A stretch of 64,000 bases of DNA, taken from contig CM120642.1 in NCBI GenBank assembly GCA_051362555.1, forward strand, positions 28,706,001-28,770,000, written 5' to 3'. The notes below the pieces were generated by a model that saw nothing but the letters and a program-made list of their open reading frames with translations, was not told the DNA's origin and ran no database searches. This DNA comes from Lingula anatina (taxonomy: Eukaryota; Animalia; Brachiopoda). Below are positions 1 through 46,795 of the stretch, piece after piece. The position numbers were made by a program, and so were the translations under genes. Positions within the stretch are counted from its first letter, which is position 1, and each line of letters opens with the position of its first letter.

Positions 1-1174
1 AATGGTGAGTTTCACCCCTAACGGTACAACAACATTGCAACTCGAAAGCGTGTTTAAAGCTCGCAATTGCCTCAAAAGCATTGGATAGGATATGCCATCG
101 TAATTCAATAAAAAACATTGAAATAAATTGTTTTGCTGTATATGGCAGTCTAACGCGCACTGTATGTCCTCAACATTCATTTTATTGTGTGCTTACTAAT
201 AATATTGACCTCTTTGCAAGATATATGCTTCTGTCTATTTCAATATATCAAATTAATTTTATCTGCTAGGTCCGGGGCAATTTTAATCATAAAGCTGCAA
301 AAATTCATTATTTGAAAACTACTTCAAACGCCCATTTTTACGCAGGTCATAAGGCACACAACCATCCATAGTGGCAGAGTTTCCTGTGTTTATGTAATGA
401 AAGAAATCCGCTCTTATCGGAAAAAACAACAGTCATAGCTCTCACCCACACAAGAATATTTGTTGCTCGTCTAACATGACTGCTGATAAACAAATAATAC
501 ACGCGGTAAAACTTTTGATTTGAAGGGGAAATCTTTAAGTCTTGCGCATAAGGTGCTTTGGTGGCAAAATCATCGGATCAGATGTTCTCTTATCGGAAAT
601 AACATCTAAAAGAATGATATTATATTTCTAAGAATGTAATTTCACTCGCACCTTGTTGAAGTCTGCATCGTTATACACGGTCACTCCCAGGAGATTCAAG
701 CGTTATTTTGACGTCATACGCAACATTTAAGCCTTTCGGCAAGAACCGTAGGCGCAGACGCGTGTTCTAAGTGATGACAACACTGTAAGAAGCGTTTCAG
801 ACTTTAAACGGCCTCTAGAGCTGGCGGAAAACACTTCAGATATAAACCATGGGCCGCTGTTAATCTCTTCTGTTGGAAAATGTGCCCACTCAGTCTTAAT
901 TTGTATTAAACTGATCAACTAGTGTTAGGGCGAAGATACAACATGTTGCGGAATGAGAAATACATGTCATTTTCACTTTCCAACTGAACATGCTTACGGC
1001 TGAATCAGGGATAACAGGTCTCTAAACATCGGTAAGCCATAGGGAAAGAAGCAACAACAGACAAAGGCTGTGTAAATTTGCGCTGTGGTTTTGCACAATA
1101 GTAAATAATGTTTTAAGATCTTCAGACAAATAATTCAAATGAGAAACCCACCTGTTCGGTAACTAGAAGAAATA

Positions 1175-2332
1175 ATGGAAGAGGACTGCTACCAATTGAA
1201 TCTTTCTTCAGCAAAGATGCCATTCAATGGTGACTATAGCGGGAATGTCACTTATGCGGTATTGGATGGCGGAGCAGTGGAGGGCTCGGGCTGCCACATG
1301 AATGAAAGTGGCACAGTGTGGGGTTATGGTGATGATGGCCTAATGAAGTTTATGATGGATTTGAGGGAAATATCATCGATTTTATTACCAGTGATATACG
1401 GCCTTGTTCTCGTCGTTGGGATATCCGGGAATAGTTTAGTGATATACGTTATATTAAACAACAAGAAAATGAAGACCTGCCCCAACATGTTGTTTCTGAA
1501 CCTTGCCGTCGCTGACTTACTGTTCTTGTTGTTTTGTGTTCCGCTGCAGAGCGCTGTCGCCATCTCAAAATGGCGCCTTATGATTGGGGACGTGTTATGT
1601 AAGATGTTACGTTTCACGACTTATGTCACCATGGGAGTGAGCGCCTATTCTCTTGCCGTCATTTGCATGTTCCGCTGCAGGGCGATAGCGTCTCCGATAC
1701 GGGCGTCTCAGTTCCTAACCAGACGCCATGCCATTACCGTCAGTCTGATCGTATGGCTGGCTATGCTGGCTTTCAACATACCAACGGCTTTATATTACCG
1801 GGAGATTGGCCAATGTAGTATGCACACGGAGACGGACGTGGAGTTCTATCTACTCTTCTCTATTATAAGCGGTATAGATTTTTTTATACCTGTGACCCTC
1901 CTCGCACTCTCCACGGTAGCCATTGTGTGCCACATCAGGAGAAGCAGGTTTACCCCGGAGAGCGAAACCCTGGTGGCCGCCGGTTATAACCCAAGAATCA
2001 TCGTAGTCCTGGTGGCCGTGACCGCCGTCTTTGTGTTGTGCTGGGGACCGTTCCACGTTAACTTCATCCTCATGATGTTGGAGGTACAGGGGATTAGTCG
2101 AGCCTGGGTTGTGACGTCCATATCATCCATCGTACTGGCCTCGGCCAATTCTTGCCTTAACCCTATCATATATAACTTTGTTTCCAAGGAGTTCCGGAAA
2201 GCGTTCCGCCAAACCATGAGTACGGTGATGAGGTCACGGGAGCACAGCTGCAGCGGACATACTGTGGTCAGTATGAGGTCGCTCCGGACCTCTGCAAGAA
2301 ACACGAACTCTTGCACGTCTAACGAGGTTTGA
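1175..2332 (+). CDS. Intronless class A (rhodopsin-like) GPCR, allatostatin-A/galanin-type neuropeptide receptor-like
   Basis: 385-aa ORF with 7 hydrophobic segments and class A motifs: GN (TM1), NLAVADL (TM2), LCK disulfide Cys, W4.50, CWGPF (TM6), NSCLNPIIY (TM7), helix 8 SKEFRKAF. Subfamily assignment is inference. Confidence 0.9.
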   Translation: MEEDCYQLNLSSAKMPFNGDYSGNVTYAVLDGGAVEGSGCHMNESGTVWGYGDDGLMKFMMDLREISSILLPVIYGLVLVVGISGNSLVIYVILNNKKMKTCPNMLFLNLAVADLLFLLFCVPLQSAVAISKWRLMIGDVLCKMLRFTTYVTMGVSAYSLAVICMFRCRAIASPIRASQFLTRRHAITVSLIVWLAMLAFNIPTALYYREIGQCSMHTETDVEFYLLFSIISGIDFFIPVTLLALSTVAIVCHIRRSRFTPESETLVAAGYNPRIIVVLVAVTAVFVLCWGPFHVNFILMMLEVQGISRAWVVTSISSIVLASANSCLNPIIYNFVSKEFRKAFRQTMSTVMRSREHSCSGHTVVSMRSLRTSARNTNSCTSNEV

Positions 2333-18481: not shown

Positions 18482-18621
18482 TTAAATCAACCTTTCCTCT
18501 GGAGGGGGTTTCAGCACATTGCCAAGTTCAACACGAGATCCTTGCATTTCCTGGCGACTGGGGCTGTACGTGCCTCGCGTGGCTCTCTTGCTGCGGGCCA
18601 TCACCAAGAAGATTATTACAG
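18482..18621 (-). CDS. crb: crumbs last coding exon: end of TM and cytoplasmic tail
   Basis: ttcttgtag acceptor, phase 1; encodes [46 protein letters not shown], then TAA. Confidence 0.96.
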
Positions 18622-18795
18622 CTACAAGAAAAAAAAAAAAGAAAGCCCTTCTTATGAAATAATATAACAAGGGAAACATATATCAAAGAAATAAAGCCAA
18701 ACAATTCTTTTTCCTGCATGTGTGCACTAAAGTTTTGATCATTATATAACAGGTGTTTGTATATTACAGTGTGTTTGGTGTAACAGAGTGTAAAA

Positions 18796-19251
18796 TTGTA
18801 CATGGGGCAGTGTGTTAGGTGTAACTGTATAAAGTGGTACATATGGCAGTGTGTTAGGTGTAACTGTATAAAGTGGTACATATGGCAGTGTGTTAGGTGT
18901 AACTGTATAAAGTGGTACATATGGCAGTGTGTTAGGTGTAACTGTATAAAGTGGTACATATGGCAGTGTGTTAGGTGTAACTGTATTAAGTGGTACATAT
19001 GGCAGTGTGTTAGGTGTAACTGTATTAAGTGGTACATATGGCAGTGTGTTAGGTGTAACTGTATTAAGTGGTACATATGGCAGTGTGTTAGGTGTAACTG
19101 TATAAAGTGGTACATATGGCAGTGTGTTAGGTGTAACTGTATTAAGTGGTACATATGGCAGTGTGTTAGGTGTAACTGTATTAAGTGGTACATATGGCAG
19201 TGTGTTAGGTGTAACTGTATTAAGTGGTACACATGGCAGTGTGTTAGGTGT
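18796..19251. repeat. 39-bp minisatellite, ~11.5 copies, in the last crumbs intron
   Basis: GGCAGTGTGTTAGGTGTAACTGTAT(A/T)AAGTGGTACATAT repeats. Confidence 0.95.
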
Positions 19252-19318
19252 GGTAGTGTGTTAGATATTACATTGAATTAGCTGTAGTAAGTAAGACAAT
19301 ATATGAAGTATAACTTAC

Positions 19319-19394
19319 CAATGACAATCAACAGGACCACACCCCCCACCACAGGGCCAATGATGACAGCCAGGGGGGTATCCTGGGTCGATCT
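19319..19394 (-). CDS. crb: crumbs exon: juxtamembrane and TM
   Basis: tttcag acceptor; RSTQDTPLAVIIGPVVGGVVLLIVI; G|gtaagt donor. Confidence 0.92.
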
Positions 19395-19696
19395 CTGAAA
19401 CACAGGGAAAAAATAGGCCACTTAAGACAGGTTATGAATATATTGATTCTTTTAAACTGAATGTGAAACTATAGTGTAACTGCTATAGAGAATTAATCTC
19501 TACATCTTTAAATAAGCATTGATCTTATTGATAAATTAAGTCATAAAACTGATATATAAGGGACAAGAAAGGCTTTGTTGAAACTGAAAAAACAGACATA
19601 GAATGAAACATAAATACAAAACTGACTATTGATGTTATTAATAATAAAGTAAGCTAAAACAGTTCTTAATAGTGTTCAATACTTCATCTTCCTTAC

Positions 19697-19842
19697 CATG
19701 GTCTCACACCTGACTCCAGCGTAACCGTCAAGACAGGTGCATTCGGCGCTGTACATGCCCTCCTGTTCTCTGTAGGCCAGACACGACCCACCATTAGAAC
19801 ACACGCCTGGCTTACACGGGTCTTCGTACTCACAGTTAGGAC
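19697..19842 (-). CDS. crb: crumbs exon: last EGF repeat
   Basis: GPNCEYEDPCKPGVCSNGGSC...GYAGVRCETM, gtaagg donor; phases 1/0. Confidence 0.92.
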
Positions 19843-20235
19843 CTGCAGCAAAGAACACAGCTTTAGATTGGCTTGCGTGTGAGAGGTCACTTACGCAATA
19901 TTTAATAGGTATATCATGTTATTTAAGTCGGTCTAGATCAAGGAGACGTAAAAATTAAAATTGTGTAATAAAATGTTCTGAAATCTTTAATTACCATGAG
20001 CTTAAGTACACAAGGGATGTCATTTCTCAACCCCACCCTTGATCTTAGATATGCAGGGTATCACAGCCTGAAATTTACAGTCGTTTCATTCACATTGAAA
20101 CTATCATACGTAAATAGATCCAACTCTGCTCGAATACAATCAAATTAACAGACTGACATGTATAATTACAGACATTTCTGTATTCTACTCAGTGCCAAGA
20201 GGAGACATGTTAATATGTTAATCTGACTGCATTCA

Positions 20236-20445
20236 GCCCCCATTCCCACAGATTTTAGATCGATCTATCCCTGTGGGGAGTCTCACTAGATTACTGTCAG
20301 CTTAGCAGGCTTAAGCGTCTGTCCCGCCTACTAAAAGCTGTAAGGGGGTAATTAACTGTCATGCGAGCTCGGCTGACTGCAATTTAGCGTGAACCCTCAG
20401 GGAGATCGATCCGGATGGATCGTTCAAAATCTCTGGGAATGCACT
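20236..20445. mobile_element. MITE family B, copy 2 (inverted)
   Basis: Reverse complement of the 9584 copy (TGTCCCGCCTACTAAAAGCTGTAAGGGGGTAATTAAC core). Confidence 0.85.
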
Positions 20446-20514
20446 CTAAGATCGATCTATGTAGATCAATAATTTCACTGGGATAGAGCCCACAGACATT
20501 CCCCTTTAACTTAC

Positions 20515-20637
20515 CCAGGAACTGAGCAGTGCAGGTGCAGTTGTAGGAGCCAAGCAAATTGTTGCAGGTCGCACCATTTTGACAAGGTGTCTTCAGACAT
20601 TCATTTATGTCTTCACTGCAGTTGACACCCTCCCAAC
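20515..20637 (-). CDS. crb: crumbs exon: calcium-binding EGF
   Basis: [41 protein letters not shown]; phases 1/1. Confidence 0.92.
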
Positions 20638-20947
20638 CTAAAAACAAACAATAACTATCAAGATTTTCCTTTTCTTTGTGACTTGAAATAACACTTTATG
20701 AACATAAAATACAATCAGTTTGCTTAAAAAAAATTTAAGTGTTCTTTTTTTTTTGAAAAAAAAAATCTTTTCAAAAACTGTTACAAATATAATACTTTAT
20801 TCCAGTCATTCATTCTGAGCTACTGGCTGTTAAATACCAAATGGTGGTTTATTTCTAATAAATGAAGTATTCAGACATCTTATAAGATATATATTTATAT
20901 AAATAAATTCAAGACAGGCTGGTGACCATGGCGCCACCTATCCTTAC

Positions 20948-21172
20948 CGTCCTCACACTGACAGGAATACTCGTTAACAAGATCGCTACAGTTGCCATGC
21001 ACACAGGGGTCGCCAGCACAGTCGTCAATGTTAGTCTCGCAGTTTGTGCCAGTAAAGCCTAGAATGCAAGCGCACGCGTAGCCACCCTGCGAATTTGTGC
21101 AGGAGGCGTTGTTTTGGCAGCGACCAATGGCACACTCATCTATGTCGTCTGCACAAGTATCGCCTTCCCAAC
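20948..21172 (-). CDS. crb: crumbs exon: two EGF repeats
   Basis: GWEGDTCADDIDECAIGRCQNNASC...NIDDCAGDPCVHGNCSDLVNEYSCQCED; phases 1/1 (not in ORF track). Confidence 0.92.
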
Positions 21173-21892
21173 CTGGAAGTTGAAGTCATGCTCTTCTGTT
21201 AGTGCGTCATGCACTGTCATGCTCAGTCAAGTTAAGATTAATATGAGACATGATTGCAAGATCCCCATTTGTATTACATCTTAACTGTTTCAAAGATTTA
21301 AGCTATACATAATCATTTGCCAATAAAGAAATCTGATCATACGCTTTGCATTCAGCAAAAGAACTTATCAGAATTTCAAGCTTCATTGTTATTTGTACAG
21401 TTGTATTACTCAACAGCAGGAAGTGAAATATAAGCAAAATCTGTCTTTCACACCAAAATCGCATTATCATGAAGAGCCTCAATTCAAAATAAAATGTAGA
21501 TGGAGCCACTTCCCAGCCAAATTCAACTGGAGGTGGAGCCACAGCTGTGACAAACAGTTATCAGGAACAATAGACTTCAGTGTTAACAAGGTATACATGA
21601 GGCAACACATGGTTTCAACATGTGTCAGGGATTGGTTATGAATAAGCTCAATTATTAAGCAACCATGCTAGTTTATCACATTTTAACTAACAAAGCAAAA
21701 GTACTTTTATTTAAAGTTTTTGTTCTTTGAAAAAATTAGGAAATTTGAGGAAGAAGCAAAAATAAACAAATAAATAAATAATTAAGTCAGCTAAGCCTCA
21801 GAATTTATGCTGGGGTATCACAATACAGAAAGTACAAATGAAATGTCTTCAAGATTATCCGTCATTCGATCCTACCCTAGCCCTTTGCCTAC

Positions 21893-21997
21893 CTGGACCA
21901 CAAATACACTGGTATCTTGCTGGGTCATCATCACTACATGTGGCTGCATTCTGACAAGGGTTGTCTGCACAGGGATGCTTTACATCACACTGTGGAC
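21893..21997 (-). CDS. crb: crumbs exon: EGF
   Basis: GPQCDVKHPCADNPCQNAATCSDDDPARYQCICGP, G|gtaggc donor; phases 1/1. Confidence 0.88.
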
Positions 21998-22356
21998 CTG
22001 AATATGTGGTACAGAACATGAGAATCAGATATGTACAGATAGTTCCTACACGATGAAAAAACAAAACTTACTAACAACAGTATACCTCTGTTGTCAAAAC
22101 TGGTATTTTTACTTAGGCCTGTGAAAAAGGCCTCAACAATGAAGTTAATAAAACTGTCTCTAATCTTTGTCCATTAAAATAATCCTCCATTTTATCTTTT
22201 ATCTTCAAATCAGGTACACCACTAGGCTTTAGGTCTTAGTTCATATCCATTTTGCAATTAATCTTTATTTCTCTTAAGGTTATAATTCAGTTATAATTAC
22301 AAATGACTCATTCTATATACGACTGGGCACTTGTAGAGATATTTCCAAGACTTGAA

Positions 22357-22536
22357 GCGCATTCAGAACAGAGACTAACACATCCGCAGGTCAAATATGG
22401 CTGACCCACTTAAAGGCTTGCTGTGAAATCCCCTTGGGAAATCCATTAAGTGTCTTATCAGGAACTAAGCGAAAAACTTTTAAATGGGTCGCCATACTTG
22501 ATCCGTGGTTCTGTTAGTCCGCTGTTCTGAATGTGC
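22357..22536. mobile_element. MITE family D, copy 1
   Basis: CATTCAGAACAGAGACTAAC..GGTCAAATATGGC / GCCATACTTGA..GTTAGTCCGCTGTTCTGAATG. Confidence 0.8.
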
Positions 22537-22551
22537 TCTCGGTGCACTTAC

Positions 22552-22800
22552 CAGCATAAAACTCAGGACAAACACATAGCCACTGCTGGGCCTGAGTGGT
22601 CGAGTTATCGAACACTTCACACGTAGCGCCATTTTGGCACTGGCTGAACGAGCAGTTTGCAATCTCGCAATCCTTCCCAGAATACCCCAGCAAGGTGGAA
22701 CAGTTGCATAAATAGCTGCCGACCAGGTTGTAGCAAATGGCGCCATTTTTACAAGGCCGTTCTGTTTCACATTCATTGACATCTTCAGAGCAATTTTTAC
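22552..22800 (-). CDS. crb: crumbs exon: two EGF repeats
   Basis: GKNCSEDVNECETERPCKNGAIC...IANCSFSQCQNGATC...WLCVCPEFYA; phases 1/1. Confidence 0.92.
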
Positions 22801-23149
22801 CTGTAAAAATATGTTCCTAGACATCATTTCAAAACTTCTAATTAACAAAATTGTCTTAAAATAACAGCACTATAAAACTTTTCAAACAAGTGTGTTTAAC
22901 TACAAGTAAATTATTCGTGTAGCATATGTAATTAGTTCCATAAAGGATTTTTTTACTGTTTCAGCATGACCCCAGGCGATTATGACAAGATGTGTCAGTC
23001 TATGAATAATACAGCTGTCAAAAGAATGAAAATGAAGCTGCTGGAGCACTAGTCAATAAAAATGTACCAAGTGCATATGTTACAGTATTAAAAAGACATA
23101 TGCATATGACATATGCACACACAGGCTTACAGAATGCATGTTCTTGCAC

Positions 23150-23152
<3 letters not shown>

Positions 23153-23213
<61 letters not shown>
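23153..23213. repeat. (GA)n microsatellite
   Basis: ~30 perfect GA units. Confidence 0.95.
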
Positions 23214-23215
<2 letters not shown>

Positions 23216-23217
23216 AC

Positions 23218-23343
23218 CTTGATATCCTTTGTCACAGCTACAAGTATAACTTCCTGCTGGAGCATTGGTACAGGTGCCGTGGACACAGGGGTTTATCTCC
23301 GTACACTCGTCTATGTCCCTAGAACAGTTCCACTCTGCCCAGC
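23218..23343 (-). CDS. crb: crumbs exon: calcium-binding EGF
   Basis: GWAEWNCSRDIDECTEINPCVHGTCTNAPAGSYTCSCDKGYQ, G|gtagct donor; phases 1/1. Confidence 0.9.
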
Positions 23344-23387
23344 CTGAGGAATAAAATGGATGGATCAGTAACTGGTTTAAAATCCTG

Positions 23388-23647
23388 GGCCCAGTTTTAT
23401 AAAGGACATTTAGCACTAACCATTGTTTAACTCTAACCAGACCTAAATAGTCTGTTAGTTAACTGACCTTTAAATAATCATTTAATCCAGTTAAACACTG
23501 GCCATTAACTAATTGGCTGTTTTCCGTCAGAACACTGTATATGTAACACAATTTAACCATCTTTTACTTAATAGGTGCTAGGAGAATTTATCAACTGGTT
23601 AGGCTTATCCACTGGTTAGTGCCAAACGTCCTTTATAAAACTGAGCC
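23388..23647. mobile_element. Harbinger-like MITE, CTG TSD
   Basis: GGCCCAGTTTTATAAAGGACATTTAGCACTAACC / GGTTAGTGCCAAACGTCCTTTATAAAACTGAGCC; CTG on both flanks. Confidence 0.85.
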
Positions 23648-24242
23648 CTGCTGTTTTCAACAAATTTAATAGAATGAAAAGCAGGGAAACTATTCACGTA
23701 TCATGCACTCAGTAATTTCAGTTTTTACTCCAAATATGTAAAGCATTTAATGTCAAACCTTTTTGTTAAATTCTCAAGTTAAGAACAGTGTTGTTAAGTA
23801 GGGCTGTTTACACAAACACGACAACAGCAGGGTGTGAAACCTTGTCAATACAACCTTATCCATTTCAGTAATGCAACAGTTTTGTCTCACTTCATTAAGC
23901 AAGTGGTACTCCTCACAGAAAAGACATTAGAAGATTACATTCCTAAGCAGAAGCCAACAAATGCTTTTGCGGGTAATAAAAAAAAATCTCATCTCTAGTA
24001 TTGGGTGTTTAGAAAAGATGCGGACAGCAGCAACTCCTCTCCATATTCTTCTATAGTGGAAACCACAAGTTGAAAACTACTAAGGTTGCCAAGAAAGGTA
24101 TCTTTGTATAATTATAGTTAAAGAACAGATAGAAATGGTTAGATTAAGATACAGTACAGGAATGTGGTTTTTCTGTTTTTTTTCCTGATTTCAGATTTTT
24201 AAACTTCATTCTGACATACTTTGGAACATTTTCCCTACTTAC

Positions 24243-24356
24243 CTGGATTACAATTACAAGTGTATGTGTCTAGTCCATCCACACACTGACCATGTCCACT
24301 GCAGGCGTTAGCTGGACAGTCGTCCCTGTTCACTGTACAGTTCCTACCTGAGTAGC
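24243..24356 (-). CDS. crb: crumbs exon: EGF
   Basis: GYSGRNCTVNRDDCPANACSGHGQCVDGLDTYTCNCNP; phases 1/1. Confidence 0.92.
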
Positions 24357-24992
24357 CTGGAGAAAGAGAGAGTGAGATATGAAGTGTAATGTGCTGATCA
24401 ACTTATCCCTTGGCAGCAGACAACAGAGAACAGAGAGAAATTAACACATAGATACTTGATTTATCTATCTCTGTGCCTGTGTGTCCTTTCCAAAGAATGA
24501 TTTGGGGAAAAAAAAACAGGGATTAAGACAGAGAAAGAGAGAGAGCAAACAGTTGTGTTCAACAGGCAATGACCATTCAAAATCTCATCTTTGACAGTAC
24601 CACTTCACCATAATAGGCAGAATGACATTTTCTAGTTTTAAGTGCCAGAATTTTCAGGTAATAAGTCACACCTGTGATTTAACTACTCTGTCACAGAAGG
24701 TCTGTTCTGCCAACAACTGAGATAATTCAAAATTAAAGACTTTGAGGAGCAGACAAACTCAAACCAATACATATACGTAATAGTGACTGAGCAGTTTTCT
24801 TTACACCTTTACTTTGCATTTCAAATTAAGAATTTTCATATTTCTGTAAAAGTATCATACCAAAATAATTACAATGTTCTCCATGTTAAAAAGATTCTAT
24901 GAAAACAGTGAGGTAAATATCACGATATTGGCTCAGAAGGAGTTGTAAGCACAACTATAAACAAAAGATAAGTGTTTTTGCGAGGTCCTTAC

Positions 24993-25140
24993 CTTTAGAG
25001 CAGTTACACTGGTAGGTAAATAGTGTGTAATCGTTTATACAGGCCCCTCCATTCTGACAGGGCACGTCCTCGCAGTAGTCGATCATCTTCTCGCACAGTT
25101 GGCCCTCAAAAGGTCGAACACAGCTGCACTTAAATAGAGG
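24993..25140 (-). CDS. crb: crumbs exon: EGF
   Basis: PLFKCSCVRPFEGQLCEKMIDYCEDVPCQNGGACINDYTLFTYQCNCSK; phases 0/1. Confidence 0.92.
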
Positions 25141-27594
25141 CTGGAAAAGAAAAGGTACTTCCTAACCAATAATGAATATATTCTGTTTTTGCTAATATGC
25201 TAAATACTGCCAAAGAAGCTGAGATGTAAATTTCTCTGCACACTTTCAATATTGTTTCAACAAATTTGTCCACATTCTTAGAAAACCTAGCTTCATCATT
25301 ACCTTGTCTTGTAACAATGTTTTCAGTAATCCGTAGCTTCAGCTCAATTTATATGTTACTCTTACAGTCTATTCAGGGTGATAAAACTTACCTAAGAAGC
25401 TTACAACACAATCTATGACAGAAAACTATCTAAAACAGCCCAGATAAAGGAACAGAAAATTCTTCATTCTGTGCAAATAAAAAACCCTAAACAAGGTAAT
25501 AAAACATTTCTCCTGCATGTCTGCTTTACATCTGCTATAATTATGCAGTACCACATTCATACAAATGATTCAACAGAATCAACTACAATAAGACTTACTT
25601 GCAGAGTGAAGAATAAATTTCATGATAGAAACTACAGCCTGGTATCTTTGAGAACTCTGCGAAGGGTGTGATAGCTAATACACGTCCCACCTCATAGACC
25701 ATGGTGACAGCTTGCATTTCTCAATTATACACCAACAGGGCATACATGCTTAACTATCCTATGCCCTGACTGAGGATAACTAACATCTGCACCCATGTAG
25801 TATCCACAACGGTCCCTCCCAATGCATGCACCTGGCCCTGGACCATGATTACTTAATAAATATAAGAATAGTAAATAATGTCTCCCCAGCTGGCCAATTT
25901 TCCTGGCATAAAAATGTGATGACAAGATTCAAAGATGGAGATAGATCAAATTTAAGTGGCCGTGATTAACGTGGGGATTGACAGATGGCAGGGTGACATG
26001 AAAAGCTACAGGAATGCATTTCATAGATTGTGATGTCTACAACAGATATATCTAGCACCAATCTCTAGTACCAAAAGATATTTCAATGGGTGTCCATCAT
26101 GAAAGAGTGCCCTGATGAAATTCTGTGTTGTCCCGTCAGGTTCTCCCTTAAATTATGAAGGGAACATCGTAATTCCCAGTGCAACATGCACCTTAAGATT
26201 TTATGCAAATAATGAACCAAGTAGAGAAATCTTTCTAAAATGCGGTGTGCTTTAATATGTTGTGTGAACAAAATAACACATAATTACTTCAAAGCAGGCA
26301 CTTAATACCTGGTTGCTTTATACATTATCTGCAGACAGCAAATATATTGAAATAAGGACATTTCAATGCTGCCATACTTTCTTATTTCTAATGGAAAAGG
26401 TATTTATACATCCAAATGATTGTTCACTCATTTTAGTAAGACTCAACTATTGTGTCAGGTTGAGTCCCGATCAGTTTCTAAAATACGTAATACCAGAATT
26501 CTCTGGCTGATCCCGATGCAAGTTCAATTTGTCCAAGGTTCGGTGTCTACATATACGCAAGTGAACTCATAACGCTAATTGAATTCCCATGTACAGTTTT
26601 TAACTGTAACATGACATTTACTTCTAACAAATAGCATGCACTATAATTCATGTCTCACTTGAGCTCATTTGCTAACTTAACATCATGCTGGTTCTAGAGA
26701 ACAATCATGAAAGACTGAAGTTATGTAAAGTTTAACACTGATCCACACAATACCCAACATTTATATCCAATAGTTTTTTTTTAAATAATGCCCAAATAAT
26801 AAACAGTACATCATTTAAATAGTCAATCTGAAGATGGTCTGAACTCAAACAGCCCACGTCAATCGCAGACATGGACCTGGCCTTCAGAGTGACAACAACT
26901 AATATCAGTTTAAACATAAATCTTCAATTAAAGGTAGAACTGGATCATAAAATGTCCAAGTGCTTTGATGTGCCCCTTAACAGTCCCATCAACTGCCAAG
27001 CCATGACTTAACATGGTCATTAAATCCATCTGACCATCATACTAAGGATAATTTTAGTTTGACCACAATAGCTGGACACCCACATAAACTTAGCCATCTT
27101 GTTGGGGGGAGGGGGGGGGGGCTGTGGCAAAAGTTAAAAGGTTGAAGGTTCGAGAGTCCAAATTTTTGCATGAATAAAGTGTATAGTGAACTGGCAATAA
27201 AATTTAGTTCATCAGAGGTGTGTACATATGATTTTTCGAACCAAAGAGCCTTCAAACCAATGAACCTTTAGATTATCGCGATGCCCCTTCTTGTCAGTTG
27301 TTATCTAAAAACTACTCTTTCAAGGAGACTTTTGTGTAAAGTGCGTATGTGTAACATGTTAATTATTGTGTTTATGGTGCATCATGCATAATCTGTTTTT
27401 TATTATCCAATTAAGGAAAAGAATTCTGCACTGTGCATCTTAGTCTACAATGATCAAGTTGAATTGTTTTTTCTTACTTGATCTCTAGTTATAGCATTCA
27501 ATAGTTTTCACATAGAACAGCTACTCCCCGTGTTTTCCCATAGCATACTTTATCAGGACAGGTAATATTATATTATTAACACTAGAACACTCAC

Positions 27595-27678
27595 CTGTCC
27601 CGGCTCTGTCTCATTGCGGTTTATATCCACACACGTTGCATTGTTTTCACACGGCTCAGAAGCACAGGTGTCGCTGAT
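27595..27678 (-). CDS. crb: crumbs exon: N-terminal half of an EGF
   Basis: tttcag acceptor; ISDTCASEPCENNATCVDINRNETEPGQ; gtgagt donor; phases 0/0. Confidence 0.9.
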
Positions 27679-28803: not shown

Positions 28804-28930
28804 ATGTGTTTCACATACTGGTCCAGTGAAATTAGCAGTACAGTTGCACTCAAAAGCGTTCACTTTATCAATACAAGTGGCGTTATTCTGGCAGGGACTA
28901 GAGGCACACTCGTCAATATCTGTCTGACAC
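28804..28930 (-). CDS. crb: crumbs exon: calcium-binding EGF
   Basis: (R)[42 protein letters not shown], gtaagt donor; phases 2/0. Confidence 0.93.
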
Positions 28931-30653
28931 CTGTAATATAACGAAAGACTTTTTAAAATATAATATAACACCTTATTGGGAAGATTGCTTACTATCTATC
29001 ACTTACCTTTCTGTTCAGTATTTTCTGGCTTTTGACATTGTTTTCAATCAGAAATAAAAGTTTAAGGGGATGTGGCATGTGTCCTTGAATGTGTGTGCTG
29101 GGGGTGGGGGTGGGAGAGAGGTTGAGACTTTGAATAAAATATATATAAGAATATATATATATATCAAAGATAAGAGCAATTTACATTGTTTCAAAACTTC
29201 AAAAATTAGCAGTAAAAACATATTGGTTGCCCTAATCTCTTCTGATAAAATATATCAGATAAATCTGGGGTAAATCAGGACCAAGATCTAAATGTAATTT
29301 CCTAAAAGGCTCATATCAGTTTTATGCACAGATTTCATATCAATACCACAACTTCAAACTGAACTGCAGCCAAGTTGAAATCATATCAGACAAATGTCAT
29401 TTTAGGTTGCTGACTTTATATTATAATATAATATAATTGCATTTAGTTGTTAAATTAAATGCAGTGCTTCATACAGAGACTTGCTTGATCAATTTTAATA
29501 CATATATAACAGATACGCAATTAAGATAATTTTATAACTTCAGAATTAAACAGTATATTAAACAATGTGAAAGCAATGTGCAAATGGACCTCTTGCCCCT
29601 CCCCCCCCCCCCAAACCTGGGCTTCTGACACCATGATTACCCATATTAACCAGAAGGCAATCTCCCCATTACATCTAGTTCTTAACACCAGCCACAGGTA
29701 ATCATCCCAATAGTATTGACCTAAGAGTTAATAACAGGTGCTCCCTTTGATTTCAACCCACTGCTCTATTCAGTGGGGTTAAAAAGAAAAGAATAACAAA
29801 GTCCTGATATTGTAGACTACATAATTATTAATGGGTGAATTGCTCCCCACAGAGTTTATATATAGTCTGTGGACAATAAAAACACTAATGAACTTTCACA
29901 TTCAGAACACCCAAATAATAAGCTATTGGGATATAAATCTTAATGAAATGTCCTTCGCTTCAACTGAGCATTATCAAATGGAAAGCCTTTAAACTGGATC
30001 TTTTGTCAGCCTTCATTTTAATTTCAAACCTTTCTCACCATTAAAAAACATGAAGGTGAAATTAAATTGTCATTTAATACCATAGGGTTTAAAATAGCCC
30101 TTGTGATAGTCTGGGTGTTTTTATGCACTGGGAAGATATATGCATGATAAAGAATATTTATGTTTCATAAATAATTTCTAGTCTGGTTACTCACTGAAAA
30201 AAAAAAAAGTCAACTGGAGTCACTTGTGTGTTGTGAGAAATACTGTAATGAAAATGTTGTTTGTGAATAATATAGATTAAAAATTGGGGCTGGAATTGAC
30301 CTTGTGTGTGTGCGTGTGTGGGAGGGGGGTTGTTGTTTGTAACTCACATCCTAAATTTTCTAAGTTTACAGGAGATGAAAAAGGAGATCATTTTAACTAC
30401 TTCGAATTTCAGTGAGCATCAGAAAATCAGGAAAACATGTTTTATTAGCTACATTTTTAGACACCATTTCTGTCTTTTAAGTGAAATAAAAAAAAATCAA
30501 GTTTATAGAATTAATATATGCAGAGCTGTCTGACCATAAGTAGAAACATTCCACACATACTTTTGGGGTATTTTACATACATGTACAGAAATGCCAATTT
30601 ACAAAAACATAAAACCACCCAACCTAGATTTTAAAATGGCAAAGCATGCTTAC

Positions 30654-30709
30654 CTGGCCTGAGGAATGAAAGCTAATAAACATGCAAATACAATGCACCA
30701 AGTCAGCAT
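30654..30709 (-). CDS. crb: Putative alternative first coding exon (signal peptide) of a short crumbs isoform
   Basis: ATG at 30709; MLTWCIVFACLLAFIPQA then AG|gtaagc; phase-2 donor matches the 28930 acceptor. In-frame ATGs further upstream at 30844, 30850 and 30871. Confidence 0.7.
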
Positions 30710-33532
30710 CCCTCTCACTGAAGAATCCCAGCGTGAAATTATACTTAATTTGCGATTCACTGATTCTGAACACGTCCTTGTTTTGGGAAAGTTGAGTTTT
30801 AGGAGCACTGACCCTTTTGGATCAGTTCTCGTTTTGGTCCTCATTGTCATGCTACAATATATTTTCTCCATAAATGTCGTTTTAATCACGGTCCCAGTTG
30901 GAATGGACAAATTCTGCTTTCACTTCCAATGTACCTTGACTTGTCGTTATATTCTAAGTAGAAATCGACACAGATTTTCTTTCTCTCCTAATACAGAGAA
31001 TTAATCTAAGTTTTTGTTCCAATCAATGCCAATGAATCAATCCCATTTCATGGGACTTATATAGAACATTGGTCACTTCTTTCATGCAGGCTTGCAAAAT
31101 CCGACCTCCTACAGCTTCCAGTGTATAACTTGCCAGCCAGCAAGTTCCTTGTTTATCAAATTGTTCTTTTTCAATGAATTATTCAACAAACACACAACAA
31201 AGGCAGGTCAAGTATCTTCAAGTAACAACATGTTAATTCCTATCTAGAGTAACCCATATCTGTGATGCACTGCACTTCTCAAGTAATCAGGCCTTGTAAA
31301 GAAAATGTTTTTAAAAATCTGAGGATGTTGAACAGATTCTGTATCAGGTAAAATCAGTGCAGTGACGTCGGGTTTATTAAAAATAAGAGTTTTTGTCACA
31401 TTATCCTCCAATTAGACCACAAATAGTCTTGTAATATCAATTACTGAGAATTGCACCACATCCAGGTAATATGGTAATCAGTTTCCCAGGAGGCAGTTTC
31501 TTTCGTAACCGTTAATTTCCTTTATGTCAAACCACTAATATTGAGCCAGTGAAATGGATGCCCTTTTCTCAAATCCAATTTCTACTGTTTTCCCTTCTGA
31601 TTGCTTATAGTTCACTATTTATTAAGTAAGATGTAAAGTCACACTCCAGTGTAATCAAGATGTGGTAAAATTCCAGTGAACACTGTAGCAAAACTGCTCT
31701 ATCTCTAAACATTTATGTTAATATTTGGAGTGTGGTTGACATCTGTCCTGACACAAAAGGTCTCACACTACTAATATGAAGCATGGGAGTGCATGGTGAT
31801 CACAACATCACAGCATCATTCCTTTCCTGTCGCTTTTACGATCAACTTCCAACTTCTGGTAAGATCAGAGATTGTAATGTCAAAACATTCCTGTTATTCT
31901 ACGTCAGCCATTTTTCCAGCATTAAAATCACATCCTCCTCACTTCACCTCAACCTGAAAAAATTCATCAAATCAACCAGGAAGTCGCAGTTTTCATGGTA
32001 ACTGTTGCTTGTTTGATCCAGCAACTATATCAACAGCAAACTACTGTTCTTTGATCGGTGGAGTAACAAAATGTCTTCTTTCCCAACGTGTCCTGCCTTC
32101 TCTCAACCTCTGCTAATAGCCTGCTGAGTGGCACAAATACAGGTGATTCTAATGATAATTACACCTAGGTCCTACAGCATGCACGCCGCATGATTCATCT
32201 CTGATGACAAGCGGGTCCTTCCCTCAAGCTGAGAGAAGCCAGGCTGTGGTTACTCACTAAACTGACTGCTGAAACTGGCCATGCATTAAATAAGTATGGT
32301 CTCCTCCTGTGCCAAACGACACATATACCCTTCTAACAGCACTGCAATATAGCCATCCATACATATAGGTGGAGAGAATGGGTGAGACAAAAGACTTCAA
32401 AACCAGTCATGGTCCACTCGTAATATTCTCGCCTGTGACTACAGGTGGTCATTACTGGTCAAGCTTGACCTCATCTACCTATACAGGGCACTTGCTGAAC
32501 TGTCCTAGGGCACCTGTCGTACTGGCTTCCTATACCTAGAGGGCGCCAGGTGATGAAGTTATCATAACTAATTAGCGGAAGTCTCACTTTATCTACTACC
32601 TGGTGTCAAAGTCTGAGAATTATCATGAATGGCAATCAAAAAACAACATATCTTAAAGTACTTTGAGAAGACCCAAAGGCCAGTTTCTATTAATGGCAGT
32701 GAACAAATTTCCCAAGTAACACATTAAGCCAAAAGAGCGAGAGAAAAGGTGAGGATACAAAGAAAACAACAGGTCTGCCCTTGAAATACACTGTTTACTC
32801 TTGTGGTTTTCATATAGATCTGTGTTAAAGAGGGGTGGAGGGTGGGACTTACTATTGCCACCTTGCATTAGGGATGTAAAATCAAAGCCTGCCAGCAGTA
32901 AAATGACAAAAGGGATGGGGGAGGGATTATGTTGACATAAATACCTTAAGTTTCCAATTCATTTCTCACTATACCTCAGATCTAGATCAAAATTACTGCC
33001 CCTGACCACATCAGACTTTTGAAGTTTTCCTAATTAAACATCAAATCCAAAATGAAAACCACTTATTTTTTTAAAAAATAATTGCCGGTCTGAAAGTTCT
33101 TACAATAATAACAAAGTTTATCCAACCACTGAATATTATAAAACACAACAAAATTATTGAAAAAAATTTTTTACCAAGACAACTCTTTTTGCCTACAGGG
33201 TCCCTGAAGACCCCCCCCTCCCCCCCCTTGGACTAATGCATCAGACTGGGCATCTGATAAAGGTTTAAACCCTGCCAGAACAGTACTGAAAATTCACAGC
33301 AGAATGTCATCTGGCAAACAACAATAAAATAATAATGAGGTGATCTCATTCATTCACATCTTATTACATCTTCCCTATCATGTTACTTCACCTTATCACT
33401 AATACAAAAACACCTGCTTCTACAGCATGACAGAATATAATATATAGTCACTCCTCAATGAACTGTGGTGATCAAAATACAGCGAAATCCATAGTTAATA
33501 TAACTGAGCTCTTTCAAACTCTGTCTATTTTG

Positions 33533-37558: not shown

Positions 37559-37577
37559 TTAAGACTGCAGCACTCAC

Positions 37578-38400
37578 CTGGCATCAGTATACCCAGCCTG
37601 ACAGGTACAGGTGTAGTTAGCAATGCCATCCACACAGGTAGCTCCATTCTGGCACTCGTTACCTGGGCAATCATCGATGTTGTTCTCACATAGCCTTCCA
37701 TTGAAACCCAGGGGACACTGACAGGTGAAGTCGTTGAAGATGTCTACGCAGGTGGCTCCGTTCTTACACGGGCTAGGAGCACAGACGGGGTCTGGGGTGC
37801 AGGGGGTGACTATGCTGGCCTTGGTCATTACCTGGAACTTCTCCAAGCTGCTGTCATTAACCAGTGCGGAGTTGAAGAAGAACGGGAGCAGGTAGCGCCC
37901 AAGTCGGACCTCATCCATGCACCCTTTGAATTTGCTCAACGCAGACTGTGTGTTTGTATTTGGTGATATGGCGACAGTGGTGTCGTCAATGCCACCCAGG
38001 AATACCATGTCACTGCCTCTGATCACCTGAGCCAGAGTGACCGCTTGGACGGGCTGGGGCTTGGACTTGGACTTCTCGTCCTGACCCTGGTCCATAGCGA
38101 GAGTCAGGTGGGTGTCATTGACCACTATGGACACGTTGTGGTACTGACCATCAGTGACCGCCCAGTTTGTCGGCAGCTCAGAACTTTCACCGAGGTTGTA
38201 CTTCAGATTCAGTTTACGTTCGGAGACTTCGATGGTGAGGAACCTTGACGCAGCTGCATTGCTACGAGCATGGAAGATGATAGCATTCTCTTTTCTTGTG
38301 CGGAATTTGAGGCTCATTTGGTTAAAGGTGGTGGTCGAGTTGATGGTGTTGTTGTAGCGGAGGAGACTGTCCATTCCATTGAATGTGGCCTCTGTTATAC
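37578..38400 (-). CDS. crb: crumbs exon: laminin-G 3 and two EGF
   Basis: (C)ITEATFNG...LKFRTRKENAIIF...VTDGQYHNV...FLGG...FKGCMDEVR...CQAGYTDA, AG|gtgagt donor; phases 1/2. Confidence 0.95.
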
Positions 38401-38706
38401 CTGAAAATATAAATATACATTGTGTAACACAGGGATATTATACATCATAAGTAATCTGTCATACAGGATAAAGAGTAACTCAAACAAATGTCACTTAATC
38501 AATTACATTTAGCTTATGAAAATTATGGTTTTACAATATACAGAAAAAATGCAGGTAAATCCTGAAAATCAGCAGCTTAGGCACATTTCTCAGAACCCTT
38601 TTCAAAAAGATGGATGGATTTGTCACTTTAACCTTCGTTCCAAACACATTCAGTGTACAACCTGTCAGACGTAACACAATGCCTCCCACCATCTCCCTAT
38701 ACTTAC

Positions 38707-41799: not shown

Positions 41800-44481
41800 A
41801 GCTGTACAATTACTAACATGATATGAATAACCCTATTGAGTTTGAGAATAATAAGGCACTGTTATTTATTGAACCAAGTGAATTTTATGAGTATTTTAAA
41901 AGTCTTTGTGAGGAAACTGAATCAAGTAAACACAACTTTGATAAAGACTTCAAGCTTAAAATAGAAAATAAACTAAGGCAAAGTGAAATGAATTCTCCAG
42001 ACAGAACTGCACTTGACCATGACATTAGTGCTGATGAGATCATGAGCAATATAAAAAAATTGAAAAACGGCAAATCAACAGGGGAAGACAAGGTAACCAA
42101 CGAAATGATAAAATCAGGGAAGGATTATCTTAAAGATGTAATTGTAAAATTGTTCAATATCATATACAAAAGTGCTAAGTACCCATCAATATGGAACAAG
42201 GCATATATAGTCCCTATCCACAAATCTGGTGATGAATCAAATGTTAACAACTACAGGGGAATATCTATTACAAGCTGCCTCGGAAAGCTGTACAACTCGG
42301 TCCTGTTAAACAGAATTCAAGCACACGCATCCCAACAAGGGGTACCCCTACCTCATCAAACTGGGTTTAAACATGGTCATGGTACTTCAGATAATATCTT
42401 TATATTTAAGTCCATTATTACAAAATTTATGAAAGGAAAGAAAAAATTATACACATGTTTCATTGACTTTTCAAAAGCATTCGATAGTGTTTGGAGGAAC
42501 GGACTACTATTCAAACTAAGTACTCTAGGAATAAGAGGACTTATGTACAAAAACATTAAAAGCATGTATGAAAACTCCCAAGCATGTGTTAAGACAAGTA
42601 GTGGTATATCCCCGGCCTTTAATACAACACTAGGTGTAAAACAAGGTGACACATTGAGCCCGTTTCTTTTTAATATTTTTATTGATGACCTTCTAAGATC
42701 AATTGATGGCGAAAGTGCTGCAAGTCCAGATATAAATGGAATACCAATACAAGGTTTACTCTATGCTGATGACCTCATCCTTATGTCCAAGACCCCCAAT
42801 GGGCTAAGGCAAAGTTTGGAAATAGTAGAAAATTTCTGTAACAAGTGGAGACTGACTGTAAATGTCACCAAAACTAAAATAGTTATTTTCAACTCAAAAT
42901 CAAAAGCTCACAGTGAAAAATTTTTTCTGTATGGAAAACCAATCCAAGAGGTCAACAAATACATGTATCTAGGTCTCCTTCTAAATCGATCAGGAAGCTT
43001 TACAGAAACCAAAAATAATCTCCTACAACGTGCTACAAAGGCATTCTTCAGTCTGTCTAAGTCTCTTCCACTTCAGAGTAATGTTAACACATCCTTAAAA
43101 GAGAAATTATTTGATACCCTCATTTCCCCAATCCTTACATATTGCTCAGAGATATGGGGCTACTCGGTGTCAACGGATAACTGCCCTACAGAAAAGTTGC
43201 ACTTAAAATTTTGCAAACAAATCCTTGGCCTCCATCAAAACGTATCAAACTATGGTGTATACACTGAACTTGGCCGCCTTCCCCTCTATACCAAAATACA
43301 GTTTGCATCTGTCAAACTATGGTGTAAAATTATTCAAATGTCTGATGCTACACTAATGAAACAAGCGTACATACAAGAGATAAATAGTTACAAGTTGCTG
43401 ACACCCTATGTCCCACCCGCAGTCCACACACTCAGACCAGCTTGTATGTCATGGTCTGAGGGTATTCGAAAAATCCTTTTCACATTTGGCCTTGGTGATG
43501 TGTGGCTTAGCCAGTCACCCCCAAAAAACTTCACCACAATTTTCAAACAAAGACAAACTGACCACTTTACCCAAATATGCAACAGCAAACTTCAAGCCAA
43601 CAGTAAATTATCTCTCTTCCGTATACTTAACCAAAAGTGTGAAAGGGCAACTTATGTTGATAAAATAACAAATTACGACACCTTGTCAACCCTTGCTAAA
43701 CTACGTCTGAGTGACCATAAACTCCACATCGAAACTGGGCGGCACACCAGGCCAAAAACTGAAAGGTGCGACAGAATCTGTCACCTGTGCACACAAGGGG
43801 TAATTGAGGATGAATACCATTTTATATTCCAATGCCCAATGTACAAAACAGACCGAGTCACCTTTTTCAGTAAAACCTCATCCCTAAAAGCTGATTCAAG
43901 GTCACCAGACAGTCAATTATGCCATGTATTTAACAGTGCCAACAAAGATACTTTAGTGTCCATCTCCAACTTTATAATCAAATCATTCAAGAAAAGAAGT
44001 GAAGTGGTTGCTCTGCTTGGTAACTCCTAGCATATCCCTTAAAATGTCAGTGTATGGTGCCACTGTTGTGAGAAGTGACTCGGCAGTGGGACTGAACATG
44101 GCACAATATTTATATCTGTGTAACTTATTTACTTATCTGTCTTATGTAATTGTCATTAATCGTAATTATCAATGTCATCAAACTGGCTTTGAACAGCCAT
44201 GTAAACAGCTATGTAACGGTGGTTTTAAGTTTTTAAAAAAACATATTTAATTCTTTTTGTGTAACATGCTTATACTATGTTTATGTTAAATTTATAATCA
44301 CACCAAGGTTTATCTCATTGCTTAGATAGAATATTCTATGAGTGATTTTACTAGTACTTATCTTCATTATATAAAGATGGTAATGCACTAACTGTATTGT
44401 ATCATCATTTGTATATCATATTGTACAAGGTCATGACAATCTATGTACCAGTACAGAAATAAATTGAATTGAATTGAATTG
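41800..44481 (+). mobile_element. 5'-truncated non-LTR retrotransposon (LINE, RTE-X-like), antisense to crumbs
   Basis: Contains an RT ORF; the 3' end has AATAAA followed by an (ATTGA)n tail at ~44459-44481; no endonuclease domain. The 5' boundary is approximate. Confidence 0.88.
41823..44030 (+). CDS. LINE reverse transcriptase ORF (truncated ORF2)
   Basis: 735 aa uninterrupted; motifs NYRGISITSCLGKLY, QTGFK, FIDFSKAFDSV, GVKQGDTLSPFLF, YADD, YMYLG; C-terminal ICHLC...EDEYHFIFQC zinc-finger-like motif. Confidence 0.92.
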   Translation: MNNPIEFENNKALLFIEPSEFYEYFKSLCEETESSKHNFDKDFKLKIENKLRQSEMNSPDRTALDHDISADEIMSNIKKLKNGKSTGEDKVTNEMIKSGKDYLKDVIVKLFNIIYKSAKYPSIWNKAYIVPIHKSGDESNVNNYRGISITSCLGKLYNSVLLNRIQAHASQQGVPLPHQTGFKHGHGTSDNIFIFKSIITKFMKGKKKLYTCFIDFSKAFDSVWRNGLLFKLSTLGIRGLMYKNIKSMYENSQACVKTSSGISPAFNTTLGVKQGDTLSPFLFNIFIDDLLRSIDGESAASPDINGIPIQGLLYADDLILMSKTPNGLRQSLEIVENFCNKWRLTVNVTKTKIVIFNSKSKAHSEKFFLYGKPIQEVNKYMYLGLLLNRSGSFTETKNNLLQRATKAFFSLSKSLPLQSNVNTSLKEKLFDTLISPILTYCSEIWGYSVSTDNCPTEKLHLKFCKQILGLHQNVSNYGVYTELGRLPLYTKIQFASVKLWCKIIQMSDATLMKQAYIQEINSYKLLTPYVPPAVHTLRPACMSWSEGIRKILFTFGLGDVWLSQSPPKNFTTIFKQRQTDHFTQICNSKLQANSKLSLFRILNQKCERATYVDKITNYDTLSTLAKLRLSDHKLHIETGRHTRPKTERCDRICHLCTQGVIEDEYHFIFQCPMYKTDRVTFFSKTSSLKADSRSPDSQLCHVFNSANKDTLVSISNFIIKSFKKRSEVVALLGNS

Positions 44482-45519: not shown

Positions 45520-46795
45520 AATAACTTCATCAAAACTTAACGGATCAAGCTTATTTTCAAACTTGATCTGTATACTGGTCAGATTGATCACTCCTGTGAG
45601 TTGCAAGACAAAAGGCTGATTGGTTTTCCTTAAAATGCGTTATCAGTGTTGCATGTATGCTGAATAAAGGGAAAAAAACAGCATTACTTTTGTAAAAATA
45701 GTCCAATCAAGCCAATTTTCAAACTTGACCTGCGTATAATAAATATTCACCAGTTCTGTAAATTTCAATCCAAGGAAAGGAAAAACATTTTTACACTTAT
45801 CATGTTATCGGTGTTATAAAAGTGCTGAAAAAATTGAAAAAAAAAAACAAAAACAGGATAACTTCCATAAAAATTGCCCGATCTTGCTGATTTTCAAACT
45901 TGACCTGCATATTATGAATATTCATTAGTTCTGTAAGTTTCAAGCCAAATGAAAAAACAGTTTTCCACTTATTGTGTTATCAGTGCTGCATATATGCTGA
46001 AAAAAGTGAAAAAACAGCATAAATTCCCTAACAATAATCGAATCATGCTGATTTTCGAACTTGACTTGCGTATTATGAATATTGATCAGTTCTACAAGTT
46101 TCAAGCCAAAAGGTAAATTGGTTTTCCACTTATGGTGTTATCATGCGGCATATATGCTGAAAAATAGTGAAAAAACAGCATAAATTCCCTAAAAATGACC
46201 CAATCATGCTGATTTTCGAACTTGACCTGTGTATTATGAATATTAATCAGTTTTGTAAGTTTCAAGCCAAAAGGTAGGATGGTTTTCCACTTATCGTGTT
46301 ATCGGGGTTGCATATATGCTGAAAAAAGTGAAAAAACAGCATAAATTCACTAAAAATGACCCGATCATGCTGATTTTCGAACTTGACCTGCGTATTATGA
46401 ATATTCATCAGTTCTGTAACTTTCAAGCCAAAAGGTAAAATGGTTTTTCACTTATCGTGTTATCGGTGCTGCATATATGCTGAAAAAAGTGAAAAAACAG
46501 CATAAATTCCCTAAAAATGACCCGATCATGCTGATTTTCGAACTTGACCTGCGTATTATGAATATTCATCAGTTCTGTAACTTTCAAGCCAAAAGGTAAA
46601 ATGGTTTTTCACTTATCCTGTTATCGGTGCTGCATATATGCTGAAAAAAGTGAAAAAACAGCATAAATTCCCTAAAAGTGACCCGATCATGCTGATTTTC
46701 GAACTTGACCTGCGTATTATGAATATTCATCAGTTCTGTAAGTTTCATACCAAAAGAAAAAACAGTTTTCCATTTATCGTGTTATCGGTAAAAGT
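45520..46795. repeat. 161-bp tandem satellite, ~8 copies, more homogeneous toward the high-coordinate end
   Basis: Unit TGAAAAAAGTGAAAAAACAGCATAAATTCCCTAAAAATGACCCGATCATGCTGATTTTCGAACTTGACCTG... recurs at 46320, 46481 and 46642. Confidence 0.9.

Follow-up and report, generated by a model that had tools for sequence, protein, structure and literature searches.

The window, the whole stretch of 64,000 nucleotides of Lingula anatina DNA that was analysed, carries the crumbs gene on its minus strand, where the in-frame exon at 37580-38401 gives a 100% match to 'protein crumbs' XP_013412192.1 (1999 aa), a record that is the sole member of its own protein cluster. The long Crumbs form of this gene carries LamG domains. 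Seven EGF-coding exons (about 1450 nt) on the minus strand at 57104-52737 of the window are absent from the RefSeq record XP_013412192.1 and may represent either a skipped block or an annotation gap; with them, the Lingula long form would reach ~2,480 aa, like other spiralian Crumbs, the exon boundaries being approximate. A 737-aa open frame with an RVT_1 match (E 9e-39) at 41817-44027 on the plus strand is a LINE-like element lying antisense in an 8.3-kb crumbs intron, and a single open frame of 389 aa at 1163-2329, plus strand, encodes a rhodopsin-family GPCR (7tm_1) convergent with crumbs. The crumbs introns also hold a 161-bp satellite in 7 copies and a 39-bp minisatellite in 12 copies (45639-46789 and 18767-19251).

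An alternative exon is present in the 8.6-kb intron of Lingula crumbs. The features that bear on it are as follows.

18482..27678, minus strand: eleven further shared exons, encoding EGF repeats 2-12, the transmembrane segment (TM), the FERM motif, ERLI and the stop; three junctions down to 24356 were seen in RNA
28804..28930, minus strand: first shared exon, with the orphan Cys of the preceding EGF repeat and then EGF 1 of the short form; onward splice to 27678 in X1, X2 and X7
28931..30653, minus strand: short-form intron, 1723 nt, GT-AG; a joint skipping 1723 in X1, X3, X7 and X8
30654..30709, minus strand: coding 3' end of the alternative exon, with a signal-peptide-like h- and c-region, 18 codons plus 2 nt; phase-2 donor GTAAGC at 30653
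30710..30871, minus strand: the frame stays open here and holds further ATGs (30871, 30850, 30844); covered by RNA, with no listed indel or stop variant
30872..32500, minus strand: transcribed leader, from the depth tables; possibly a single 5' UTR, or else a short UTR next to an independent RNA that is not spliced
37578..38400, minus strand: long-form exon with the last LamG and two EGF repeats; its normal donor (intron begins at 37577, phase 2) is the rival donor for the 28930 acceptor

The coding piece begins with the ATG at 30709 (context GGG ATG), and its 56 nt encode MLTWCIVFACLLAFIPQA plus 2 nt. A sequence-only reading of the window had proposed that the phase-2 donor at 30654 matches both the 37577 donor and the 28930 acceptor, and these coordinates and the phase were reproduced. 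Its predicted reading frame was likewise borne out, for splicing of the 13 exons, all bordered by GT-AG, gave a 572-aa frame free of stops with 12 EGF repeats, a TM, the FERM motif and ERLI, that is, an EGF-only ectodomain without LamG. The three upstream in-frame ATGs (30844, 30850 and 30871) and the TGA at about 30920 were also found as claimed, the latter at 30922-30920. The shared exons at 18482..27678 are 98% identical to residues 1445-1999 of XP_013412192.1; the last exon contains the FERM-binding motif RxxxGxYxPS, as defined in a passage of PMC5968619, and the single TM is followed by a C-terminal ERLI PDZ-binding motif, the tail being identical to that of XP_013412192.1.

A filter for an ATG plus a hydrophobic run was passed by one of the 202 GT[AG]AG sites in the window (123 minus, 79 plus), namely the 30654 donor, and by a site in 1 of 1000 simulated introns, a chance estimate that flatters the site because the filter was designed with the case already known. 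RNA variants listed within 30654..30709 fell only at 30668, one synonymous and one changing Phe to Leu. A perfect donor word, AAG/GTAAGT, lies at 29006 on the minus strand, 76 nt above the 28930 acceptor, without any joint listed from it.

RNA across the 30654-to-28930 junction

Six Lingula-labelled raw-read runs of nine, from three studies, were read to 6% or about 25% of each run; X1 and X2 were examined twice and counted once, and the samples are unlabelled. The joint anticipated from the sequence alone was seen in 20 reads from 4 of the 6 runs and 2 of the 3 studies, namely X1 (7 reads, 4 starts), X3 (3 reads, 3 starts), X7 (3 reads, 3 starts) and X8 (7 reads, 4 starts). It was not found in X2 (0 short versus 9 long reads) despite leader cover up to 12x, nor in X4, a run with almost no crumbs signal and no reads on any listed crumbs joint.

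Long-form reads at the 28930 acceptor, counted in X1-X3 as loose ends at 28933 matching the 37578 exon end with two differences, numbered 5 in X1, 9 in X2 and 4 in X3. Short-junction reads were about level with long-form reads in X1 and X3, a ratio that is only rough because joints and loose ends differ in sensitivity. The share of short reads, 0 of 9 in X2 versus 10 of 19 in X1 plus X3, differs with P 0.001 when every read is counted and 0.02 when the count is halved to allow for read pairs, a hint that use of the alternative exon may be regulated.

The junction reads are oriented as the crumbs exons, and in the stranded runs X1-X3 the intron is empty on either side of the exon, with depth no higher than 0.41 across 29092-30567 and zero across 32536-33191; intron retention is therefore rejected as the source of the RNA. 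In X2, the leader was covered from 30732 to 32535 with depth 0 at 30568-30731, which could reflect either unspliced RNA that ends early or sampling noise.

Short forms in molluscs and the question of common descent

Short proteins with a Crumbs tail were sought in relatives through the best 120 of 297 matches and look-ups of 20 clusters. Among the matches listed, there were at least 44 ERLI-ended proteins of 250-1100 aa, at least 41 with three or more EGF repeats, and at least 11 LamG-less records from 8 molluscan taxa in which a hydrophobic run stood directly before the first Cys. The molluscan short forms come from Patella (limpet), Littorina (periwinkle), the planorbids Biomphalaria pfeifferi and Bulinus, the sacoglossans Elysia and Plakobranchus, Euprymna (squid) and a bivalve-like record that groups with Mercenaria and Mactra; six of the eight are gene models. 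A Pfam scan returned no LamG family in any of the eight. In all nine short forms, Lingula included, the junction falls at the 14th Cys behind the last LamG, a position taken for six of the molluscan forms from a relative's long form, and all nine use the same one of the 12 introns behind the last LamG exon. Peak 9-residue hydropathy was 2.3-3.3 in the short forms versus 0.4-1.0 in the long forms, and the short-form leaders have A, V, I or C at -3 (9 of 9) and Pro at -4 to -6 (8 of 9).

The Patella proteins of 582 and 2459 aa carry one locus tag, SNE40_000740, and are identical over their last 555 aa, and the Littorina proteins of 622 and 2508 aa are identical over their last 570 aa. A separate short paralogue is thereby rejected for Patella, by the shared locus tag, and for Littorina, by the identical C-terminal part. 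It also receives no support from the tree, where short forms group with the long forms of their own taxa without a paralogue clade; the tree was used for tip grouping only, its deep nodes being weak and its outgroup not monophyletic. In B. pfeifferi, crumbs is split into two gene models at the same junction. The 459-aa 'CRB' of Euprymna scolopes in GenBank (AQM40270.1) is a short form of the same architecture and junction, and two further assembly records share this form. The short form was absent from the RefSeq isoform sets listed and from the Lingula RefSeq record, and the matches listed included no annelid, nemertean, chiton, oyster, mussel, scallop, arthropod or deuterostome example.

A tail profile run against 1.84 billion representatives yielded at least 6 more proteins of 250-1100 aa among the best 150 of 362 matches. 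Not counted as examples were fragments that lack a hydrophobic leader (Ridgeia P0127, Aplysia P0142, Tegillarca P0141 and Homalodisca P0149), the sea-urchin P0431, which has another position and looks like read-through, the mite proteins P0123 and P0160, which are of a different build, and P0562, which lacks the orphan Cys. P0562 (594 aa), which came from the tail-profile search, has a signal-peptide-like start, 11 EGF repeats and an ERLI tail without LamG, and shares 32-35% identity with the long forms of molluscs and annelids, beginning at about the same point; a mostly molluscan 68-member cluster of 512-aa EGF proteins lies near it in the Atlas and is taken as a lead only. P0123 (Dermatophagoides, 991 aa) has a signal peptide, 17 EGF repeats and an ERLI tail and no LamG; its best alignment is with arthropod Crumbs, in the N-terminal EGF block, possibly marking a separate route to LamG-less Crumbs in mites.

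The sequence-only reading had pointed to the orthologous intron of relatives as a place to look for conservation. Position was conserved, the eight molluscan forms lying at the same cysteine, but the leader sequence was unlike that of Lingula. Between the leaders of Biomphalaria and Bulinus the likeness extends over about 80 aa and was reached in 0 of 500 shuffles, and that between Biomphalaria and Elysia in 1 of 500; since 36 leader pairs were tested, two matches of Patella carry little weight. None of the molluscan leaders was significantly like that of Lingula, the best pair being equalled in 21 of 500 shuffles, so that the argument for common descent is one of position and character.

It is conceivable, though rather unlikely, that the Lingula isoform is real and the molluscan forms are independent, or in part gene-finder read-through of the pyrimidine tract of a phase-2 acceptor. 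Such an origin would fit the unlike leaders and the six gene models; moreover, Lingula's own phase-2 acceptor, when read through, likewise yields a fairly hydrophobic segment with Arg-Cys at its end, and Arg or Ser before Cys suits a donor AG and an acceptor AG alike. However, V, A or I occupies -3 in 7 of the 8 molluscan leaders, and read-through would therefore need a purine at acceptor position -5, which occurs in 2 of the 28 acceptors of Lingula crumbs; with these Lingula frequencies, 7 of 8 leaders would arise as read-through with P about 7e-7. The squid leader, with Cys at -3, is not cleared by this test. The conservation of the planorbid leaders and the use of one intron out of 12 by all nine forms also speak against such an origin. 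The arrangement is probably ancestral to brachiopods and molluscs. The boldest reading, slightly more probable than not, is that the Cambrian ancestor of the two phyla already had a second promoter, in the intron, for an EGF-only, LamG-less Crumbs with the canonical tail, and that it has been kept since; its product would be a major form in some tissues, missing from RefSeq and deposited as squid Crumbs, so that spiralians would obtain from one gene the long/short split that vertebrates and nematodes obtain from paralogues.

The 5' end, the start codon and the predicted isoform

In the stranded runs X1-X3, depth in crumbs orientation extends between 30654 and about 32500, with no inner joint among those listed. 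The exon that the sequence-only reading had drawn as 30654..30871 is indeed transcribed, but its RNA cover amounts to ~1.85 kb and not 218 nt. Near 32500 the depth fades gradually without a sharp start, the 37578 donor lying outside both stretches examined. No pyrimidine-tract acceptor was found in 31900-32900, none of the loose ends and joints listed falls at the 5' edge of the leader, and core-promoter motifs near 32500 gave nothing useful. The leader contains 33 ATGs in 1629 nt, that is, 20 per kb versus 23 in the intron, and this absence of depletion makes it poor for scanning. A depth dip at 31224-31387, which may come from polymorphism, adjoins an AATAAA at 31378, and the stretch 31045-30872 is free of ATGs (P about 0.02-0.03, a post hoc observation); the RNA may therefore start nearer, around 31030, with a separate RNA further upstream. 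TATATAA at 31063 is one TATA-like word, within chance.

Translation would begin at one of four in-frame ATGs. The start at 30709 had been proposed with the upstream ATGs as possible alternatives; these are transcribed, but the start is uncertain among the four. Since RNA covers the three upstream ATGs, the short precursor may be longer, with 617, 619 or 626 aa from 30844, 30850 or 30871, respectively, and the extension at 30710..30871 would then add a basic n-region of 45-54 aa (12 K/R, 4 D/E). Two of these ATGs carry A at -3, and every indel listed has a position of 30887 or higher and so misses the open frame. Hydropathy and the -3/-1 residues suggest that signal peptidase would cut after Ala-Arg-Cys and remove the orphan cysteine, in which case the mature protein would have 552 aa whichever ATG is used.

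With a start at 30850, 30844 or 30871, the hydrophobic run might instead stay in place as an uncleaved signal anchor, and the protein would then cross the membrane twice, its basic N-terminus lying in the cytoplasm. Although the transcribed upstream ATGs would allow it, and long leaders, of 52-84 aa or more, occur in 5 of the 8 molluscan forms too, this is improbable: the run spans only about 13 residues, Pro stands at -5 with small residues at -3 and -1, the uncleaved form would retain an unpaired Cys, and the signal peptide of Drosophila Crumbs is itself described as unusually long in a passage of PMC5312091. Slightly less probable again is a real RNA that is mostly untranslated, serving regulation or decay as a uORF-laden leader or a 'poison' exon spliced from 37578 and yielding little short protein; the upstream ATGs at intron-like density, the in-frame TGA at 30922, the 37578 donor outside the stretches examined and the X2 leader RNA without the junction would suit it, whereas the gradually tapering 5' edge shows no acceptor-like site or listed loose end, X1 and X3 have about as many short-junction as long-junction reads, the eight molluscan forms repeat the signal-peptide features at this junction, and the TATA-like word and the ATG-free stretch allow a nearer start.

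A short Crumbs isoform without LamG is regarded as very likely; its predicted protein combines 12 EGF repeats and a TM with the normal FERM/ERLI tail. The transcript that opens with the alternative exon likely comes from an internal promoter, and the observed junction and frame show that this exon is joined in frame to the one at 28930. The product would be a type-I membrane protein with an EGF-only ectodomain about a fifth as long as that of the long form, taking the latter as ~2,480 aa. Its unchanged tail, with motifs whose roles in Crumbs partner binding are described in part of PMC5968619, would recruit Stardust/Par6/FERM partners as full-length Crumbs does, and could thereby supply apical scaffolding without the LamG and N-terminal EGF region. 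In Drosophila, most epithelia are rescued by the Crumbs tail alone, and apical enrichment and Notch stabilisation are tasks of the ectodomain, according to a passage of PMC5829512; the vertebrate CRB2 ectodomain binds in trans, as stated in an excerpt of PMC13507169. Because no literature passage was found showing that LamG carries Crumbs adhesion, the idea that the short form has lost adhesion is put forward as a hypothesis only.

Comparison with known Crumbs systems

Zebrafish Crb2b-sf resembles the Lingula form in that a second transcription start in an intron of a crumbs gene leads to a shorter ectodomain (PMC7044448, in part); however, it lacks the first 11 EGF repeats only, according to a passage of PMC11129452, and would hence keep the LamG block, whereas the Lingula form starts after the last LamG. 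Vertebrate CRB1-B likewise has its own promoter and first exon and a predicted signal peptide, and was long unannotated in databases (a passage of PMC7335077), but it joins at c.1172, before LamG1 at aa 485, and so keeps LamG (a passage of PMC12859255). Its intracellular domain is also a different one, whereas the Lingula short form retains FERM/ERLI. In all of these cases, a unique intronic exon is spliced in frame to shared exons, in Lingula with junction reads in four of six runs. The Lingula short form joins two EGF repeats after the last LamG, not upstream of the LamG block; it is therefore not orthologous to the Crb2b-sf and CRB1-B isoforms and is a variant distinct from the vertebrate internal-start isoforms.

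CRB3 and the C. elegans proteins CRB-3 and EAT-20 are LamG-less Crumbs with FERM and PDZ motifs (PMC4359734, in part), like the Lingula short form, but are products of separate genes, while the Lingula form shares a gene with the long form; CRB-3 lacks a recognisable ectodomain and EAT-20 carries three EGF repeats, versus 12 in Lingula. The analogy to CRB3 and CRB1 drawn by the sequence-only reading thus holds for the device, which is the same as in CRB1-B, and is otherwise loose, since CRB3, encoded by a separate gene, has almost no ectodomain, unlike the 12 EGF repeats at the long-form locus of Lingula, and CRB1-B keeps LamG. Drosophila Crb_A-D are also several isoforms from one invertebrate gene, but the N-terminus and three LamG repeats are common to all four, as far as the cited part of PMC5312091 describes them.

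The mechanism itself, in which an alternative first exon brings a signal peptide of its own, is ordinary. New here is a predicted LamG-less, internal-start Crumbs with the canonical tail, placed at one start point in Lingula and eight molluscs, which suggests from sequence comparison a very old two-form design. The literature searched gave no account of a LamG-less internal Crumbs isoform in spiralians; the E. scolopes CRB, deposited simply under that name, probably stems from Peyer 2017 (PMC5519459), and the squid source paper may describe the short architecture. The main text of the Lingula genome paper does not mention crumbs, and the annotation files of the Lingula and mollusc genome papers may already hold the transcript.

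The role of the Crumbs ectodomain apart from the tail is still argued, with adhesion, apical enrichment and Notch stabilisation under discussion in a passage of PMC5829512. A natural LamG-less form kept in two phyla would, if true, be a ready-made test of what LamG and the N-terminal EGF repeats contribute. The reading of spiralian data would change as well: probes, antibodies and knock-downs directed at the 3' end would detect both forms, the squid Crumbs sequence may represent the short form alone, and split gene models, as in Biomphalaria pfeifferi, or models named 'Notch' would be explained. A short, LamG-keeping fish protein, P0145 (CRB1-like, 1019 aa), has a hydrophobic leader that ends in Val-Arg-Cys before the first EGF repeat, the same orphan-Cys arrangement as in the Lingula short form at a different intron.
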